Source of the DNA: Pseudovirgaria hyperparasitica | Taxonomy: Eukaryota | Reading direction: 5' to 3' (one strand) | DNA: 64,000 bases | Assembly: GCA_010093815.1 (NCBI GenBank) | Contig: ML996573.1 | Part shown: positions 37,341 through 47,081 of the stretch, piece after piece | How the letters are laid out: each line of letters begins with the position of its first letter | How positions within the stretch are numbered: the stretch's first letter is position 1 | Position numbers and translations under genes: made by a program | The notes under the pieces: generated by a model | Seen by the model: only the letters and a program-made list of their open reading frames with translations | Told to the model about the DNA's origin: nothing | Database searches by the model: none

Positions 37341-37952
37341 CCAGCAGTCAATGTCACGTGCAGTTCGCAACGTTCCCGCCAAGATTCGACTGCGCTAACT
37401 TTAGTAGTTAGTAGCCGGGCCGAATACTTACTAAGAACAGTTAGTTCAGTCTATTAATACCTTACCATTTCTATTATACATAGACGCCTTACTCTATTAG
37501 ACTGGCATATTATTTCTCTAATAAATGGAATATAGGAGTTCAATGGCGTTCTTCTTTAACCTAATCGATAATCTTAACTTCGCTTTATCTATATATATAC
37601 ATATTTCAAAGCCAACTAGAGTCCTTAAACTGCCCCCTATTTGACGCTGATATTAGCGCTGTCCATCCGGATTAAGTACCCGGCGGTAACCCACTATATT
37701 CTTAGCGCGCCGGACACCGGGATGCCCTGGACGTTACCCAACGCGCTTTGCAGGCGTCTCGCCGCGATGTTGTGATGTTGATATCAATTGATATCCAACG
37801 AGATCGCGACATAGATTGGTTGCCTGAAACGAGCTGCATCCAGACTGCAGATTGATTAGACATAAGCGCTCTTCGGATGGAAGCTTTCTGCTTTTCGTGC
37901 ATCATGTCCAGCTCCCATCTAAACATTTAAGGCGGACCTCCCCTCCCATCTT

Positions 37953-38052
37953 CTGCTTGCCAAAACCTCATCCTGCTTGCCAAAACCTCATCCTGCTTGC
38001 CAAAACCTCATCCTGCTTGCCAAAACCTCATCCTGCTTGCCAAAACCTCATC
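37953..38052. repeat. Perfect 20-bp tandem repeat x5 (CTGCTTGCCAAAACCTCATC)
   Basis: Directly visible; ends ~30 bp upstream of the kinase ATG at 38082. Confidence 0.95.
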
Positions 38053-38081
38053 TGCCCTTTGATAGGAAGATTCACTGCATC

Positions 38082-39877
38082 ATGGGCGACATAATCGCTT
38101 ATTTGTTTCCATTCCAAGATGTCACCCAAACAGCACGCAGGGTGATCATAGACCCGGTCAACAGCCCGGAGGACTGCCCTCGGTACGTTGAAATGTCACT
38201 ACGATCGCCCGGGCGGGAGCCCGGACTAGAGTTGAGGTATAGCCACAAGCTCAAAGGCGGCCGAGGCATTGTCTTTGGGACTGACCCAAGGACCTGCGAC
38301 ATTGTCCTACCAGCGCTTCAAAACAGGGAAGGCCGACCTCTCGTCAGCAAGCAACATTTCTACATCACCTTCGATGCCCAACGTCGACTGGTTTTGCGTG
38401 ACTGCTCGACACACGGTACCACTGTCACGTACGACGGCAGGGGGAGCGCCAGCCGCAGCAACTCCGAATGGGTCATAGGCGGCGACATAGTCGCCGACAG
38501 CAGCAATCAAATCGTCATCGAAATTCATCCAACACTCAAGTTCCAGATCGTTGTCTCCAGGATTCGTTAAGACCTGGGTCTGTTCTTCAACACCGTCGAC
38601 CAATTTCTCAAGGACATCTGCCACGAATTAATGCCACCGGCTACTTTGGGAGAGCGTGAGTTCAAAAGCTCCCCCTAGCAGCAGAGACACCCTTATCCAA
38701 AGGCCCATTCTTCTGAAGCGAGAATTTCTAGGCGAACGGTTGTACGGAGTTGTAGATCGTGTCTGGGACGTTAGTACCGGGTTGGATTATGCTGCCAAGA
38801 CGTTTACTAGCTCGAAAGATATCGAATGGAGAAAGGAGGCGAGTGTGATGCGTAATACATCGTTTGTAGGCATAAATACCGCTGTAGCAACTATTGTACT
38901 TGTGTTTTTTCTAGAATCACATCCTCAAGCTTTACTTTACGTTGTGACGGTCGCTAGACAGGTTGTCACGCCCTCAGCTATTGCTGGAGTATCTTCCGCT
39001 CGGAAGCCTTGAGAAACAATATGGCGAACAAGTCATGTCTAGGCGCGATGTTTTGGCTCTGCTTCGTCAAAGCTCTTCAGCTTTGGCATACCTTCATGAT
39101 CAGAAGCCACTTATTGTCCATCGAGACGTCAAGCCGGAGAACATTCTCGTCTTATCTCGCAGCCCATTCCACATCAAACTATCAGACTTTGGCCTAGCAA
39201 AGGCAGGTAGCTTTTTGGAAACTAATTGCGGCACGCCCCGTTATATTGCTCCTGAGATCTCTCGCTCAGACTATGGCGAGAGCCGTAGATACACATGTGC
39301 CGTCGATATTTGGTCTCTTGGCGTTGTTGTCCTCGAGTACGGTTATAGTCTTCCGAGATATGATAGGAATTCACGACTATCCCGGGCTGAACAGATCATC
39401 GAAGGGTTGAAGAAGTGGAAGTCGGACACTGATGGCGTGTTCAATGTCTTGTCGGGCATGCTGGTCATAGACCCAAAGCAGCGGTTGTCAGCTAAAGAGT
39501 GTTTGGAAAGAGCACAGGGGCTAGAGGGGTCTCAAACACCGACTCAAACACCGAGACCAATGCCTTCTGAGAGACAGCAGCGTGAGGTTGAACCGCCGAA
39601 ACCAACGGCCATTGACCCCACTGCCCTCAAGCGTCCCGTCTCACCTAAGCTTGAAGGGGATATACGACAGCAACGCACCTCACGTCCTATCCAGGATGCT
39701 GAAGTCCAGGGACACAGCAAGCCAGGCGCCCAGGAACACGCCAGGCCAGACGTCCCGGGACACGCCAGGGACGAGGTCCCGCGTCATACTGACGCGCTGA
39801 CAACTACAGAGAAGCGAAAGAGAGTAACAGGGACATTATCTTCATCCGAAAGACGCGCAAAACGCACTGTTACATAG
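38082..39877 (+). pseudogene. FHA-like domain plus Ser/Thr protein kinase (CAMK/Chk2-like architecture), disrupted
   Basis: FHA-like IVFGTD..CDIVL..VSKQHFYITFD..LRDCSTHGT. Kinase motifs YAAK, IVHRDVKPENIL, KLSDFGLA, CGTPRYIAPE and DIWSLG. In-frame TAA at 38568-70, frame change near 38620-38655, TGA at 38945-47 after intron ~38866-38914, and a degenerate Gly loop (LGERLYGVV). Confidence 0.75.
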
Positions 39878-40689: not shown

Positions 40690-41345
40690 AGGGTATTCCT
40701 GTAATATACGTATAATATTAGCTCTTGTAATAGTACTTTTTCTTTCCTTATTACCGTAAATACAGCTAATCTTGTATTATATAGTAGAAGTTAAGTTTCT
40801 ATATATGTATATAATACTTATTGAATAGGTTTTCATATAGAATATAATGATAAATTATTTATCTAACAAGCTAGACTATATTATTAAGTTAATATCTATC
40901 TAATTTCTTTAATACTAATAGCTCTATAGAATAATATATCTCTAGCTTTAATAAATATTATTGTCTCTGTTTCTAGCTTTTACAGAGGGTGATTTACCTA
41001 GAAACATTCGTTATTTTCTTAAGGCTTAGATCTCTAAGTACTCATGCACGAGTATTTTTAATCTCTATCTTCTTACCTAGAGCTGCATTTACTTACATAT
41101 GTGTAGATAAGTATATAAGGATACCAAAAGTAGATATAATAAGTATAGAGGTATATGTTCATCCCTCTACAAGCTTATTTTATATTAATAAAGTCTCTTC
41201 TAAGAGATAGAGAAAGGATAGAACCTTAGATGATAATCTATATAAAGAATATGTTAGTGTTTAGAGAGAACAAAAACTCTTCTTTCTCTTATTATACTCT
41301 ATGAGTCTATTTAAAAAATTTATAATATATAGATTTTTATGTAGA
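40690..41345. mobile_element. AT-rich, TpA-rich relic, probably a RIP-mutated repeat or transposon fragment
   Basis: Abrupt drop in GC, abundant TA/TAG/CTA, scarce CA/TG and no credible ORF. Family not identifiable. Confidence 0.6.
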
Positions 41346-41740
41346 GGCAGCGAGGTTTCACAGATTGGTTTCGATTGCGGTATTGTACGACCGCTGCCAC
41401 TCTTGTCAGCCGTTTTCAGACATCAATTTGGCTAGACACATGGGTAGGGAACAGGTGACCCGATAGCCTTCCTGTCGCCTGAATGAATATCCTATGACTC
41501 ATGCTCCTGTTCTCTGAGCTCTCGCTAACCTCTGTATTATCGCTCGCCTTGTTATGGTGAGTGACCGGCCTCTTAATGATCTAGGCTGCAGCGTTAGCGA
41601 TCTATAGGACAAGAATCTAGTGTCCCTTGCTTCTAGATTCCATGTCTAGCAGGTATAAAGTAGACTATCGGTATTGTGATCTCATCTGTTATTCCTTCTC
41701 ATCTACTTTCTAATCTATTCTCTTCTGCCGCTGTGCAAAT

Positions 41741-42959
41741 ATGGCGGAAGTTTATGATACTACTCGATTTGGCCAACTTTATTATGCATCACGGCAGCCT
41801 CGCTCTAATCATTTGTTCCTAGCAGCATACCATTTAGCTGAAATCTGCCAGAATGCTGGCATACAGTACGCGTTTCTGGGAGGGTGGACCGTTCAACTAC
41901 GGGGTGGCTCCCGCGAGACACAAGATGTTGATATTTCTGTAAAAACAACCATGGAGCTGTTTAAGAAGACTTTGCTCAAGATGCCGCGGTATGTGCTTAT
42001 GAGACACTTTAGGGGATAAGGGCTGTCTTTCTACTATCGTGAACGACTTGTATGAAAGCATACATACTAAACAATCGATAGGATCTGTTTCCCTCAAATT
42101 CATGGTCAAACAGCTGTGAATTTGTTCGTTCATACTGGGAAGTCTTACGATCAGGGTTATGACGACCTTCCAGATCTTGCCGTGCAAGTGGATGTAATCA
42201 TAAGTGGTAGATGACATACCGTTCTGAGAAATGAGTTTGGCTAATCGACCAGGAAACTTGAACAGTCCTACGGACATCAACAGTTCCACCTCAGAAACAA
42301 TCATTCTCCCGAACGGTTTCAATGCTAGGGTGATTAACATATTCTTTCTTTTGCGAGGGAAATTCAATGCATTCGTCACACGCGGACACACGAGTACAAA
42401 CGATTACGAAGACTTGGTCTTTCTTATTACTAGGTATCCAATGGTGATACCTCAGTACAGCAGTTATATTGACAAAGAATATCGACTGAAGTTTCTAGAG
42501 AAGTTCACAGCATCCAACGCGGGAAATGAAGGCCTTCTCAGGTTGATGAAACAGAGACTTGGACTAGTAGAGGGAAATAACAAAGGAACGAATGAAGGAA
42601 AAGAAAAAGCAGAAGAAGAGGAAGTAGAGGAGGAGGAGAAGAAGAAGGAAGAGGAAAATCTCAATTGGATCTGGGACGCAACACATGGGCAGTACAGGAG
42701 ATTGATCGAAGGCAAATGGCAGTGGGCTCCTGTCCAGCAGAAATCTTCTCAACCGGAAGCATATAGCACTGACTGGGCTTGGGATGATACACATGGCCTA
42801 TTCAAGAGATTTGTTGGAGGCGAATGGCAGTGGGCTCCTGTCCAGCAGCAATCTTCTCAACCGGAAGCATCTAGCATTGGCTGGGCTTGGGATGATACAC
42901 ATGGTCTATTCAAGAGATTTGTTGGAGGCGAATGGCAGTGGGCTTCTTCGTTGCATTGA
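41741..42959 (+). CDS. Nucleotidyltransferase-fold protein (AbiEii/type IV toxin-like motifs) with C-terminal Trp-rich 36-aa repeats
   Basis: Exons 41741-41988, 42082-42206 and 42253-42959 join in frame. Motifs YAFLGGWTVQLRGGSRETQDVDISV, VQVDVI and LLRGKFNAFVTR...NDYEDLVFL. TATAAAG at ~41655. Confidence 0.7.
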
Positions 42960-43437
42960 AGCGGAATGTCTGGACTCTTAAATGTCGTGCCAGTGCGTAG
43001 CAGTGGTCGGAACAGATAATTTACTTCTTAGAGAATGACCTTGGTCTACTGTATTATCTGGCAGATCTTCACTAGTATCGCAGTGTAATATGTTGATAGG
43101 CTAGCTATAGAAAGTTGGTAGTTTGACGTCAGCTATAATTAGCCGTTCCGATCCAGTACGGTTTTACTATTTCGCCTCCTTTGGGATTTGTAGAGCGAGT
43201 GACGACTACTGTGGCGAAGATTGTATATAGACACGTAGTGGTGCAAAGAAATTTGCATCACGATCGTCATGGTGCTCTACGAGGAAATCAATGCTTTTAT
43301 TGTTTAGGATGCCGAAAAAGACGTGTGATGGATGTGGGTCGAATAGGGTTCGTCTTGAAGTAATAGACAAGCACTGCATAACAGAAGGAACTACGATATG
43401 TATCTTCAACCTGGGATTCTCTTCCTCACAAGATTTC

Positions 43438-44245
43438 CTAACACCCATCGCGCTCTTCTCTCCACGGTTCGGATATTGATCCTTTCAGCATGAACCGTGT
43501 TTCGAACAATTCATGGGGCAGCATCACTTGTAATAACCTTTCCTTCTTGTCTTCCGTAACCTTCCGCCACATCGACATCGTCTCGACGTGACAAGTGGGC
43601 AACACACTGGCTGCTAGCGAAATGTCCAACTTTCCTTCGCCTCCCATCAATTCTGCGTTACGTTGATGCGCCCATTCCACGTCGGTCTTTCCTTTGAGAT
43701 CCAAGTTTGTGATTCCCCAATCATAATCCAGGTTCGCTCCATCAACAATATCGCACAGCGATACCAGGTCGTATTTGTCCAAGTAGCTCTGTACTAAATC
43801 CGGTAGTGGTGCATACGGAACTCCGTTTGAGCTTCTCCACACAGAAACTTGGTCAATCGGTATTCGGGCATGGAGAGATGGCACCAGGCAGAACTCATAG
43901 TCTACCTCAGTTCCCCGAAACCATGTGTACATGTGCGCGAACGACATGGGCTGAGGATACCGCTTCTCATTTGTTTGTGTGTATTCCTCATGCTGTCGTA
44001 TTATATCCGCAGCCTCATCCACCTTTTCAGTCGCTACACAAATCTCCCACTTCTGTTCAGATGTTAAGATCATAGTATTCTCAATAAGATTTCTTTGGAC
44101 TTACGTCTCGTACTCGTAGCGCACCATAAAACATGAGTGCGGAGACGCCAACAACACAACACGGGATCCCATTCTGTTCTAGAAGGCACGTCACATCGCG
44201 AATTTCGAAGGTCCCATGTCCGCCGCATGATGCCAGCCTCTTCAT
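43438..44245 (-). CDS. Divergent nucleotidyltransferase-like fungal hypothetical protein
   Basis: Exon 44105-44245 and intron 44053-44104 join ORF 43438..44073, giving LEQNGIPCCVVGVSALMFYGALRVRD|KWEICV; later GVPYAPLPDLVQSYLD and LCDIVDG. Confidence 0.6.
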
Positions 44246-44714
44246 GTTGTCTTGTTGAGTCTTATCTGGTCGTCCTTAGCAATGTGCGGTCGTAACCTGA
44301 TGCATCGAAGTGAATGCAAATGGTTACCTAGCGGGCGTTAGACGATGATATAGTGGAGCCTTAGGCCGTACTAGTGCGGTCCCGGTTAGTCCGTGGGCGA
44401 CGCCAAGATCTCCGCCCTTGGCACCTTCCCGATTAAGCAGTTGTCAACATTGAACCATCCATGATATTCGTGACTCGTGCAGGTATCCGCATACTTGACT
44501 AGACACAACATACTCGACCATACACTTGACCCGGTCCCGCTTTCCCACTCGGCCAGTGATCCAAACATGGATGGTGATCGACGGCCAGCCACTCAATCTT
44601 CATTGATCACCGAGCTCGAACGAGATGCTATAAAGGCGTGCCACGGTGTCGACAATTGTGCCGCACCTCGTCCCTCTCTATCTCCTTGGAGGTCCCTGGA
44701 ACACTTCTGTCGCC

Positions 44715-47081
44715 ATGCTGTACTTCCTCTCACTCGCCGCCGTCGCCCTGAGCAGTCTCGTTTACGCCATCGACCCTCCGCGTGTGCCGCACCAACCGCT
44801 CGGCAATGGCGGCAACATCCTCGCTTTCAACGAAACTATCCCAACCAGCTTCTCTGCTCGAACCCTGGCATTTGACTGGGTCTCTACTGCCGACGGCGAG
44901 GACGGCGTGTACATCTTTAGCGATGACGATGGTGCTCTGACTTTCCAGAATGTCGTCACCGGTGAGCAGACGGAGTTCCTGGCTGCCGACAAGATCCCCT
45001 CAGACTACCACGAGTACTGGATCAAACCAGATTTGACACAGGTCTTATGGAGCGTAAATTACACGAAACAGTACCGCTACTCGTACTTTGCGGACTACCT
45101 CGTTCAGGATGTCGCCAGTGGAGAGCTCACGCCGCTGGTAGAGGACCAGGCTGGGGACTTGCAGTATGCAGAATGGAGTCCGACTGAGAACCAGATTGCC
45201 TTTGTTCGTGGGAACAACATCTTCGTCTGGAGCGCTGGTAAAGTCTCGCAAATTACTGAGGATGGTGATGCAGATCACTTCAACGGCGTGCCAGACTGGG
45301 TGTATGAAGAGGAGATTTTTGGCGGTCGCTCGACGCTGTGGTTTTCTCCCGATGGCGAGTACATTGCCTTCCTCAGCTTCGACGAGTCGGGTGTCAAGAC
45401 GTTCCGCATCCCGTACTACATGGATAATCAGGAGCTTGCGCCGCCTTATCCAAGAGAGTTGGAACTGAGGTATCCCAAAGTGGGCGAGACGAACCCGACT
45501 GTGTCGTTTCATCTTCTGAAACTAGACTCATTGGAGACTTCAGAGGTGCCTATCGATGCTTTTGAGGCGGACGATCTTGTCATTGGCGAGGTTTCGTGGC
45601 TTACGGATGGACATTCTGATGTTATCTACCGTGCGTTCAATCGCGTGCAGGACCAGGAAAAGCATGTAGTCGTCAAGGTCGAGGCAGGATCATCTTCAGT
45701 AACTCGCGAGCGTGATGGCACAGACGGATGGCTCGACAACACTCTCTCTATTGTGTACTTGGGAGAGACTTCTAGTGGCAACGCGACCTATCGCACGAAC
45801 TCGACGACCTACTATTTGGACGTGTCTGATGTATCTGGCTGGAACCACATCTACCTCTATCCAGTGCATGGCGGCAAGGAGATTGCTCTCACCAGCGGCG
45901 AATGGGAGGTGAGGTCCATTTTGAAGGTCGACAACTCGAGAAACCTCGTCTACTACACTTCGACCGAACACCACAGCACAGAGTCGCACGTCTACTCGGT
46001 CAACTACCAGACCTTGGAAAAGACTGCACTAGTCGACGACTCCGTCCCTGCAATGTACGAAGCATCATTCTCCACTGGCGGAACCTACTACATCCTCAAC
46101 TACCGCGGTCCTGACGTTCCCTATCAAGAGCTGTACAATGTTAATTCCAGCGAGCCTATTCGTGCCATCTCTGACAACAAGGCGCTCTATGACCGTCTCC
46201 ACACCTACAACCTGCCCAACATAACCTACTTTGAACTCGAGCACCCCGAAGGCTTCACTCTCAATGCCATGCTCCGCCTTCCACCCAACTTTGACCCCTC
46301 CAAGCAATACCCGGTCATCTTCCTCCCGTACGGCGGTCCTGGCGCGCAAGAAGTCACCAAAGCTTTCCAATCCCTCAACTGGGACGCCTACGTGACGTCT
46401 GACCCCGAGCTCGAATTCGTCACATACACCGTCGACAACCGTGGCACCGGCTTCAAGGGCCGCGACTTCCGCGCTTCCGTGACCAGTCGTCTCGGATACC
46501 TCGAGCCACGCGACCAAGTCTGGGCCGCAAAGCAGCTCGCCGAGCAGAACCCCTGGGTCGCGACAGACAAGATCGGCATGTGGGGCTGGTCGTATGGCGG
46601 ATACCTCACGTCCAAGACGCTTGAGCTAGCCGACCCGATCTTCAGCTTCGGCGTCATAACTGCTCCCGTCACCGACTGGCGCTTCTACGACAGCATGTAC
46701 ACGGAGCGCTACATGAAGACGCCCGCCCTCAACCCGGCCGGCTACAATATCTCGGGCGTCTACAACACCACCGGCTTCAAGACTGTCGACGGCGGCTTTC
46801 TGATCCAGCATGGCAGCGGCGATGATAATGTGCACTGGCAGAATAGCGCTGTCCTTGTTGACCGTCTTGTCGGTGCGGGCGTCGGCCCGGAGCGCATGCA
46901 GGTGCAGTGGTTCACGGACAGCGATCATGGGATTATGTATAATGGCGCGAATTCGTTCCTGTATAAGCAGCTTACGCGCTTTGTCTGGCAGATGAAGAAT
47001 CGCAAGGACGGGGCTGTGCAGCATCAGTGGAGCAAGCGTGCGGATAGGGGGGCTGGGGGGTATTTGGTTGTGGACGGGTAG
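44715..47081 (+). CDS. DPP4: Secreted dipeptidyl peptidase IV (family S9B)
   Basis: Signal peptide [38 protein letters not shown]; catalytic [15 protein letters not shown] and FTDSDH. Confidence 0.95.

Follow-up and report, generated by a model that had tools for sequence, protein, structure and literature searches.

The 64,000-nucleotide stretch of contig ML996573.1 (assembly GCA_010093815.1) analysed here, referred to as the window, comes from Pseudovirgaria hyperparasitica, a member of the Dothideomycetes, and contains a convergent pair of genes whose products are both predicted to adopt the fold of the DUF1814/AbiEii nucleotidyltransferases (NTases) of the Pol-beta superfamily. The plus-strand gene (plus gene) looks to encode an intact enzyme and the minus-strand gene (minus gene) a degenerate relative. 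Together they constitute a conserved two-gene module of filamentous ascomycetes, their adjacency extending beyond a local accident. The locus is laid out as follows, in window coordinates:

41741–42959, plus strand: plus gene, three exons, 359 amino acids (aa), ATG at 41741; spliced product 100% identical to P0026 (EJ05DRAFT_511313)
41741–41988, plus strand: exon 1 of the plus gene, residues 1–83 with the last codon split, carrying motif I (G47G48) and motif II (R58, T60, D62-V-D64)
42082–42206, plus strand: exon 2 of the plus gene, residues 83–125, carrying the third acidic strand (V-Q-V-D120-V-I)
42253–42959, plus strand: exon 3 of the plus gene, residues 125–359 and the stop codon, carrying motif III (K161..A164..R168) and motif IV (D175xxD178)
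42660–42941, plus strand: three tryptophan-rich (W-rich) repeats of ~36 aa each, within exon 3 of the plus gene
42960–43437, neither strand: intergenic spacer, 478 bp from stop to stop between the convergent genes
44245–43438, minus strand: minus gene, two exons, 251 aa, ATG at 44245; product 100% identical to P0006 (EJ05DRAFT_511314)
44105–44245, minus strand: exon 1 of the minus gene, M1–D47, carrying G33-V-S35 and R44-V-R46-D47
44053–44104, minus strand: intron of the minus gene, 52 nt, with a tandem cag/aag acceptor at its end
43438–44052, minus strand: exon 2 of the minus gene, K48 to C251 and the stop codon, carrying K48-W-E50, the D139xxD142LVSL.D148..D151G block and the conserved C-terminal region
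40800–41400, neither strand: AT-rich block resembling the product of repeat-induced point mutation (RIP-like), directly upstream of the plus gene; context, outside the module

This layout agrees with the preliminary description of the DNA, which had proposed a convergent pair with both N-terminal exons split off from the visible open reading frames (ORFs): coordinates, database proteins and contig joints concur. Contigs of the public runs X1 and X2, which represent one sample and for which the kind of run is not on record, skip all three introns (93, 46 and 52 nt) at GT..AG borders and are therefore probably cDNA-derived. In these contigs, the exon 1/exon 2 joint of the plus gene passes from 41987/8 to 42081/2 (GT..AG), the joint across the minus intron lies at 44052/44105 (CT..AC read on the plus strand), and spliced molecules of both genes are present in the same sample. 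In the spacer region, a minus-strand contig extends to 43277 and plus-strand contigs extend to 42935.

The NTase domain of the plus protein occupies residues 1–232, in a family whose proteins measure ~230 aa. An exhaustive search returned 134 family representatives at E ≤ 1e-3; tightening the threshold to 1e-10 left 72 of them, and to 1e-30, 14. Organism names were available for 24 of the 30 representatives looked up, all of them filamentous ascomycetes from several classes; the family ranges over Leotio-, Dothideo-, Sordario- and Eurotiomycetes and is widespread in Pezizomycotina. The plus gene is a new member of this known family.

Extracts of Dy et al. 2014 (PMC3985639) describe four DUF1814 motifs, mutation of each of which abolished AbiEii toxicity. 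All four occur in the plus protein, with conservation counted in an alignment of 35 full-length family members. Motif I (hG[G/S]) reads F-L-G47-G48, both glycines being kept in 33/35, and motif II reads R58-E-T60-Q-D62-V-D64, with R58 present in 35/35 and T60, D62 and D64 in 31, 32 and 34 of the 35 members, respectively. The third acid stands in V-Q-V-D120-V-I, where D120 is aspartate in 31/35. Motif III (KLxAaxxR) takes the form K161-F-N-A164-F165-V-T-R168 (K161 and R168 each in 34/35), and motif IV (the +DxxD pentad) that of N174-D175-Y-E-D178-L, with both aspartates in 35/35; the position before D175 is K or R in 13/35 members and N in the plus protein itself. The preliminary description had identified these motifs, including the acidic strand VQVDVI, and erred only in two spacings: nine residues, not the eight of its GG-x8-R.TQDVD, separate G47G48 from R58, and five, not the four of its K..A...R....ND..DL, lie between R168 and N174.

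Searched against the PDB, a profile of the 35 members retrieved MenT1 (8an4; E 8.7e-10) and Pb27 (5uvd; 3.5e-9), with LnuA at 0.008. The profile alignment places motif II opposite 'RfTRDvD' of MenT1, and T60 of the plus protein aligns with MenT1 T39. The Pfam family AbiEii (PF08843) is matched by 26/35 members at E ≤ 1 (best 1.2e-9), and these matches together set the motifs beyond coincidence. P0026 alone has no match to PF08843 at E ≤ 10 and falls short of the gathering cut-off; the assignment of this protein to DUF1814 accordingly draws on its motifs, its fold and the match of the family profile to PDB entries. Weak matches to Pfam Aminoglyc_resit occur in 11/35 members (best 1e-4).

The AlphaFold model of the plus protein has a predicted local distance difference test score (pLDDT) of ~96 over residues 1–230 and displays the bilobed MenT-type fold, superposing on MenT1 with Z 16.1 and a root-mean-square deviation (rmsd) of 2.8 Å over 173 aa and on Pb27 with Z 14.9 over 198 aa. 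Scores were lower for MenT3 (Z about 11–12) and for the small-molecule NTases ANT(2'')-Ia (Z 12.6) and LnuA (Z 11.5). The best Foldseek matches were likewise MenT1 and Pb27 (3.6e-7 and 9.8e-7). By its motifs and its model, the plus protein looks like an intact, catalytically competent short DUF1814 NTase of the MenT1/Pb27 type.

Among eight longer matches of the plus family, no NLR-type or other recurrent fusion was found. The 586-aa protein P0095, in which a Retrotrans_gag match and a weak Jacalin match precede a plus-family NTase at 360–586, may be a true fusion or may result from merged gene models. A further plus-family gene of P. hyperparasitica (P0029, EJ05DRAFT_496964) lies on another contig and carries the UniRef name AbiEii/AbiGii toxin family. 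In Penicillium brasilianum, the family paralogues P0183 and P0184 bear consecutive accessions (CEJ59302 and CEJ59303), which suggests a tandem pair of plus-type genes.

For the minus protein, one exon used as query found 20 family matches and a profile found 36, with identities of 58–72% within the Dothideomycete group and 38–44% to proteins of Penicillium, Cirrosporium and Stylonectria. Its sequence matches nothing in Pfam, NCBIfam or the PDB. The degenerate N-terminal motif recognized in the preliminary description is present, the region reading GIPCCVVGVSALMFYGALRVRDKWEI. An ungapped alignment of this region with that of the plus protein pairs G33 with G47, R44 with R58, R46 with T60, K48 with D62 and E50 with D64. 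G33-V-S35 and R44 are thus kept from motifs I and II, the phospho-acceptor position is R46, and K48-W-E50 stands opposite D62-V-D64, in line with the earlier claim that DxD is replaced.

Across ten full-length members of the minus family, the first catalytic Asp position holds E5/K2/D2 and the second E6/D2/Y1. A conserved third carboxylate is lacking at the candidate positions (Y5/E3/W/Q and C/V/I/Q), and the Lys and Arg of motif III are absent, with Q135-S136 in 10/10, in a register derived from sequence and secondary structure. Motif IV (DxxD) is retained as D139-K-Y-D142-L-V-S-L, both aspartates being present in 10/10, and parallels D175-Y-E-D178-L-V-F-L of the plus protein. Invariant in the family are H87, Y89, R120, S121, D139, D142, D148, D151, N154, W159, D171, W174 and N179. 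As the canonical catalytic set is lost and other residues are strongly conserved, we read the minus protein, from its sequence and model, as a pseudo-NTase that is probably kept for something other than two-metal catalysis.

Structural comparison places this protein in the same fold. Its model (pLDDT 84; predicted template modelling score 0.80) superposes on MenT1 with Z 11.7 and an rmsd of 3.6 Å over 160 aa, spanning both lobes (Foldseek 2.6e-5), and on ANT(2'')-Ia and LnuA with Z 10.2 and 8.7. An independent Atlas model matches bacterial AbiEii/DUF6036/DUF2204 clusters with template modelling (TM) scores of 0.51–0.56 normalized by query and 0.65–0.71 by row. The plus and minus proteins show no similarity to each other in BLASTP, and hhalign of the two families returns a probability of 35% (E 4e-4) confined to the N-terminal motif. 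The AbiEii/DUF1814 fold earlier attributed to both products on the strength of motifs is therefore recovered by Foldseek and by Z-scored superposition, and for the plus protein also by profile. The same holds for the contrast of one intact-looking and one divergent NTase: plus-family motif residues are conserved in 31–35 of 35 members, and the minus catalytic set is degenerate.

Among the structural rows of the minus model, a weak one concerns the AbiEi antitoxin of Streptococcus agalactiae (6y8q_A; Z 7.4 over 126 aa, chain 55–195). This value lies in a common range; as a lead, the fold of the minus protein might have elements in common with the domains of known DUF1814 antitoxins.

The replaced DxD lies at a splice junction, and the minus intron ends in a tandem cag/aag acceptor (44047–44055, minus strand). 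Use of the downstream site (cagaag/TGG, 3 nt on) would encode R-V-R-D-W-E, in which the DxE looks intact; the gene model of Ophiobolus has this form. This D-W-E form was rejected because the X1 and X2 contigs use the upstream acceptor alone, giving K-W-E; a minor D-W-E isoform may exist, since contigs drop rare variants. The tandem acceptor is kept in relatives, as indicated by the read-through 'EQKWEIC' (Q-K-W) in two metagenome loci, L001 (about 2100) and L003 (about 1190).

These loci belong to a set of five (L001–L005) recovered by a metagenome scan with the minus-family profile. In L001, L004 and L005, a plus-family NTase gene lies downstream on the opposite strand, with the stops ~170–530 bp apart (tblastn with 35 plus-family proteins). 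At L003, the neighbouring plus gene runs off the end of the contig within its W-repeat tail. L002 (1457–2373) is a decayed module: the minus homologue has lost its 5'/N-terminal part and shifts frame towards its end, its convergent neighbour is an ORF with a single W repeat and no NTase domain, and a protein-kinase ORF lies upstream. In Cirrosporium novae-zelandiae, a minus-family gene (M1834_007064) and a plus-family gene (M1834_007065) have consecutive locus tags, both from a 186,777-bp contig; among the 30 plus-family representatives looked up, locus-tag adjacency occurs in this pair only. The preliminary description had proposed to ask whether homologues of the two genes are unlinked elsewhere. 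They are linked in Cirrosporium and in three of the five metagenome loci, and the other two loci show the C-terminal repeat of the plus gene alone.

Identity to the window pair declines in parallel for the plus and minus proteins, at ~74/73% in L001, 41/39% in L004 and 37/38% in Cirrosporium, and tblastn of seven ORFs neighbouring the pair against the five metagenome loci gave no match. Genomic context covers seven minus-family genes; those of Ascochyta rabiei, Ophiobolus disseminans, Penicillium hispanicum, P. herquei and Stylonectria norvegica lie outside it. The conserved neighbourhood of an intact and a degenerate copy suggests an enzyme and its dedicated partner. Compared with L001, the ratio of non-synonymous to synonymous substitution rates (dN/dS) is ~0.25 for minus exon 2, 0.10 for plus exon 1 and 0.13 for plus exon 3, with dS of 0.8–1.3; judged by these substitution patterns, both genes are under purifying selection, which, together with the spliced contigs, indicates that both are functional.

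A further pair may be represented by P0017, a minus-family fragment, and P0043, a plus-family fragment, both of which come from ENA and each of which lists a longest contig of 2010 bp.

Beyond the NTase domain, which ends at ~residue 232, exon 3 of the plus gene encodes an E/K-rich helix (239–260) and the W-rich repeats. Residues 236–359 are missing from all 134 representative matches of the plus family. The repeat has the consensus WxWDxxHGxxxRxxxGxWQWA and is present in three units of ~36 aa; a 108-nt tandem repeat at 42710–42944 (2.2 copies, 95% matches) is the source of two of them. Each unit is modelled as a small three-stranded sheet following the helix, with strands within 264–354. The tail yielded nothing relevant in Pfam or NCBIfam at E ≤ 1 and no feature match in the Atlas, where all TM-scores were <0.4; fold searches with the whole plus model were filled by the NTase domain. 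The W repeat also lies beside minus homologues at L003 (2310–2498) and at L002 (2023–2127, in the ORF devoid of an NTase domain), and the plus partners at L001, L004, L005 and in Cirrosporium are without it.

Outside the module, the neighbourhood consists of ordinary genes. Upstream lies a gene with FHA and protein-kinase domains in a checkpoint-kinase-like architecture (37923–39877), and downstream a DPP-IV/S9 (prolyl-oligopeptidase) gene (44634–47081) is followed by genes for an FAD monooxygenase and the splicing factor CWC25. The proposal that the pair sits in an accessory island therefore finds no support. The 600-bp block at 40800–41400 has a GC content of 0.273, TpA/ApT of 1.23 and (CpA+TpG)/(ApC+GpT) of 0.75, against 0.509, 0.67 and 1.26 for the whole window, a RIP-like signature that may mark the relic of a mobile element. 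Known DUF1814 antitoxins (COG5340 AbiEi/MenA3, COG4861 and MenA1) were found neither in the minus protein (Pfam and NCBIfam) nor in the flanking ORFs (Pfam).

Bacterial relatives suggest what such a pair might do. The NTases of AbiE, MenAT1 and MenAT3 extend tRNA 3' ends by adding nucleotides, according to portions of PMC10435456, PMC11375011 and bioRxiv 10.64898/2026.01.19.700257. The partners MenA1, MenA3 and AbiEi bind over the active-site face of the toxin and induce its auto-phosphorylation, as described in sections of PMC11375011, bioRxiv 10.64898/2026.01.19.700257 and PMC10435456. The phosphorylated residue is a Ser/Thr two positions before the first catalytic Asp, T39 in MenT1 (passages of PMC10435456 and PMC11375011). 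From this partner logic, from the retention of T60 in 31/35 plus-family members and from the lack of any conserved neighbour other than a catalytically degenerate version of this fold, we infer an active enzyme accompanied by a pseudo-enzyme regulator. Our preferred explanation, held tentatively and at somewhat less than even confidence, is that the plus protein is an active RNA 3'-end NTase and the minus protein its cognate pseudo-enzyme regulator, possibly as poison and antidote.

Under this explanation, the plus enzyme would extend RNAs at their 3' ends by nucleotide addition, by analogy with the tRNA acceptor ends modified by MenT enzymes. The minus protein would be a dedicated partner that binds the enzyme and restrains or directs its activity; as in the bacterial systems, it might neutralize the enzyme by shielding its active-site face, by triggering T60 auto-phosphorylation, or by both, and the module would act like a toxin/antidote or abortive-defence pair. 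Prediction of a complex between the full plus protein and the minus protein, run with the family alignments unused, gave a score of 0.00 and 'no answer', and counts neither way. The interpretation in the preliminary description is partly supported, in the folds, the intact and degenerate states and the linkage; toxin/antidote function is a candidate reading of them, and the accessory-island context finds no support.

Several observations weigh against this explanation. By sequence, the minus protein is unlike known antitoxin types, having no match in Pfam, NCBIfam or the PDB, and the register in which its third carboxylate and motif III are judged lost was set by sequence and secondary structure rather than by superposition of the active site. 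Penicillium-type minus proteins carry an acidic dyad, E-W-D, and may still bind metal and be enzymes. The contexts number only seven; L001 and L003, being closely related to the window, are not independent of it, and L002 is a degenerate exception. At E ≤ 1e-3, the plus family counts 134 representatives, far more than the 36 matches found for the minus family, so many plus-type genes probably have no such partner, and the relevant passage of Dy et al. 2014 (PMC3985639) describes fungal DUF1814 homologues as not linked to putative antitoxins. Finally, Pb27 is abundant in healthy Paracoccidioides cells and vesicles, as reported in parts of PMC12565617. As Pb27 keeps the motifs and is nevertheless abundant and tolerated, 'toxin' cannot be deduced from membership of the plus family, and constitutive toxicity in particular is disfavoured.

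It is possible, if rather doubtful, that the two proteins instead form a two-component enzyme or two-step pathway with no role in conflict, whose common substrate would be either cellular or xenobiotic. Tailing or repair of RNA 3' ends would be one example and small-molecule nucleotidylation of the ANT(2'')/Lnu kind another, with the minus protein supplying substrate binding or a non-canonical activity. Both models match ANT(2'')-Ia and LnuA (Z 8.7–12.6), and the weak Aminoglyc_resit matches in 11/35 plus-family members point the same way; the top matches by profile and by structure, however, are MenT1 and Pb27 rather than ANT or Lnu, and the plus protein has the DUF1814-specific motifs III and IV. 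The E-W-D dyad of Penicillium-type minus proteins would suit a second catalytic component, whereas the minus family has neither a conserved carboxylate triad nor the motif III Lys. Plain purifying selection on both genes and the abundance and tolerance of Pb27 are also compatible with such a role, but the pair is not accompanied by co-conserved biosynthetic or transporter genes.

We consider it unlikely that the genes are uncoupled paralogues, born of an ancient tandem or inverted duplication, held together by microsynteny, chromatin or regulation, and each working alone. The common fold and the weak N-terminal hhalign match (35%, E 4e-4) fit an old duplication, the complex prediction returned no verdict and hence supports no interaction, and only a handful of contexts is available. 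Against this, adjacency and convergence persist down to 37–39% identity with no flanking gene in common, the plus and minus proteins diverge in step, and a degenerate site combined with strong conservation elsewhere is the usual mark of a pseudo-enzyme retained as a binding protein. It is improbable that the pair is, in the strict sense, a selfish driver or an allorecognition locus, with poison and antidote acting in spore killing or heterokaryon incompatibility: an intact enzyme tightly linked to a degenerate paralogue, the adjacent RIP-like AT-rich block, the decayed pair copy at L002 and an AbiEii-domain orthogroup that, in a portion of PMC13468701, figures among the families expanded in Colletotrichum together with NACHT, HET and Helo_like_N would all suit this reading, whereas the long vertical co-divergence of the two genes under purifying selection speaks more for a stable cellular role than for a driver of rapid turnover, and the neighbouring genes are ordinary.

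Fungal DUF1814/'AbiEii' domains and the structure of Pb27 were already known, and recent fungal genome papers, PMC13468701 among them, merely list such domains in the parts concerned and call their function unclear; what is new is the conserved convergent partner, a putative pseudo-NTase of the same fold. In the literature searched, no description of such a pair was found. The pair provides the first testable eukaryotic genetic context for the DUF1814 family, well studied as bacterial toxins (AbiEii and MenT1–4), suggests a type of regulator not known from bacterial systems, and gives a point of entry to the function of Pb27 and its family of antigens. A bolder form of the idea, which we regard as having little probability at present, is that the pair is the first eukaryotic counterpart of MenAT/AbiE: a vertically maintained chromosomal module in which a tRNA 3'-extending, translation-blocking plus enzyme would be held in check by the pseudo-NTase, for instance through auto-phosphorylation of T60, and released upon mycovirus infection, non-self fusion or parasitic attack. 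If true, the pseudo-NTase would define a new antitoxin class, and bacterial abortive-infection logic would have been retained in eukaryotic cell-autonomous immunity.

Among known systems, one comparison is with ANT(2'')-Ia and LnuA, small bilobed NTases that parts of the AbiEii preprint place in the DUF1814 superfamily and that match both models structurally (about Z 8.7–12.6); these are stand-alone resistance enzymes acting on small molecules, and their profile support is far weaker than that of MenT1 and Pb27. The AbiE systems of S. agalactiae and Lactococcus supply the four-motif DUF1814 definition that fits the plus protein; AbiEii (PF08843) belongs to a longer branch, COG2253, and its partner AbiEi is a winged helix-turn-helix regulator (COG5340), unlike the minus protein. 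Only one fungal member has a solved structure, the 27-kDa Paracoccidioides brasiliensis antigen Pb27 (PDB 5uvd, 'nucleotidyltransferase-like protein'); it shares the R.T.DVD and K...R...D..D motifs with the plus family and is familiar as an antigen and vesicle protein of high abundance. The closest counterpart is MenAT1 of Mycobacterium tuberculosis (MenT1 Rv0078A with MenA1; PDB 8an4, 8an5 and 8rr5), MenT1 being the best structural match of both fungal products and also the best sequence-profile match of the plus family. It shares with them the short bilobed DUF1814 architecture of ~190–230 aa, and its T39, D41, D43, K137 and D152-region DxxD are the counterparts of T60, D62, D64, K161 and D175/D178 in the plus protein, which carries the W-repeat tail in addition. 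MenAT1 is encoded in a bacterial operon, whereas the fungal genes are convergent, intron-containing and eukaryotic; and where MenA1 is helical, has a mass of 7.4 kDa and bears no relation to NTases, the fungal partner is a 251-aa protein that itself has the predicted NTase fold.

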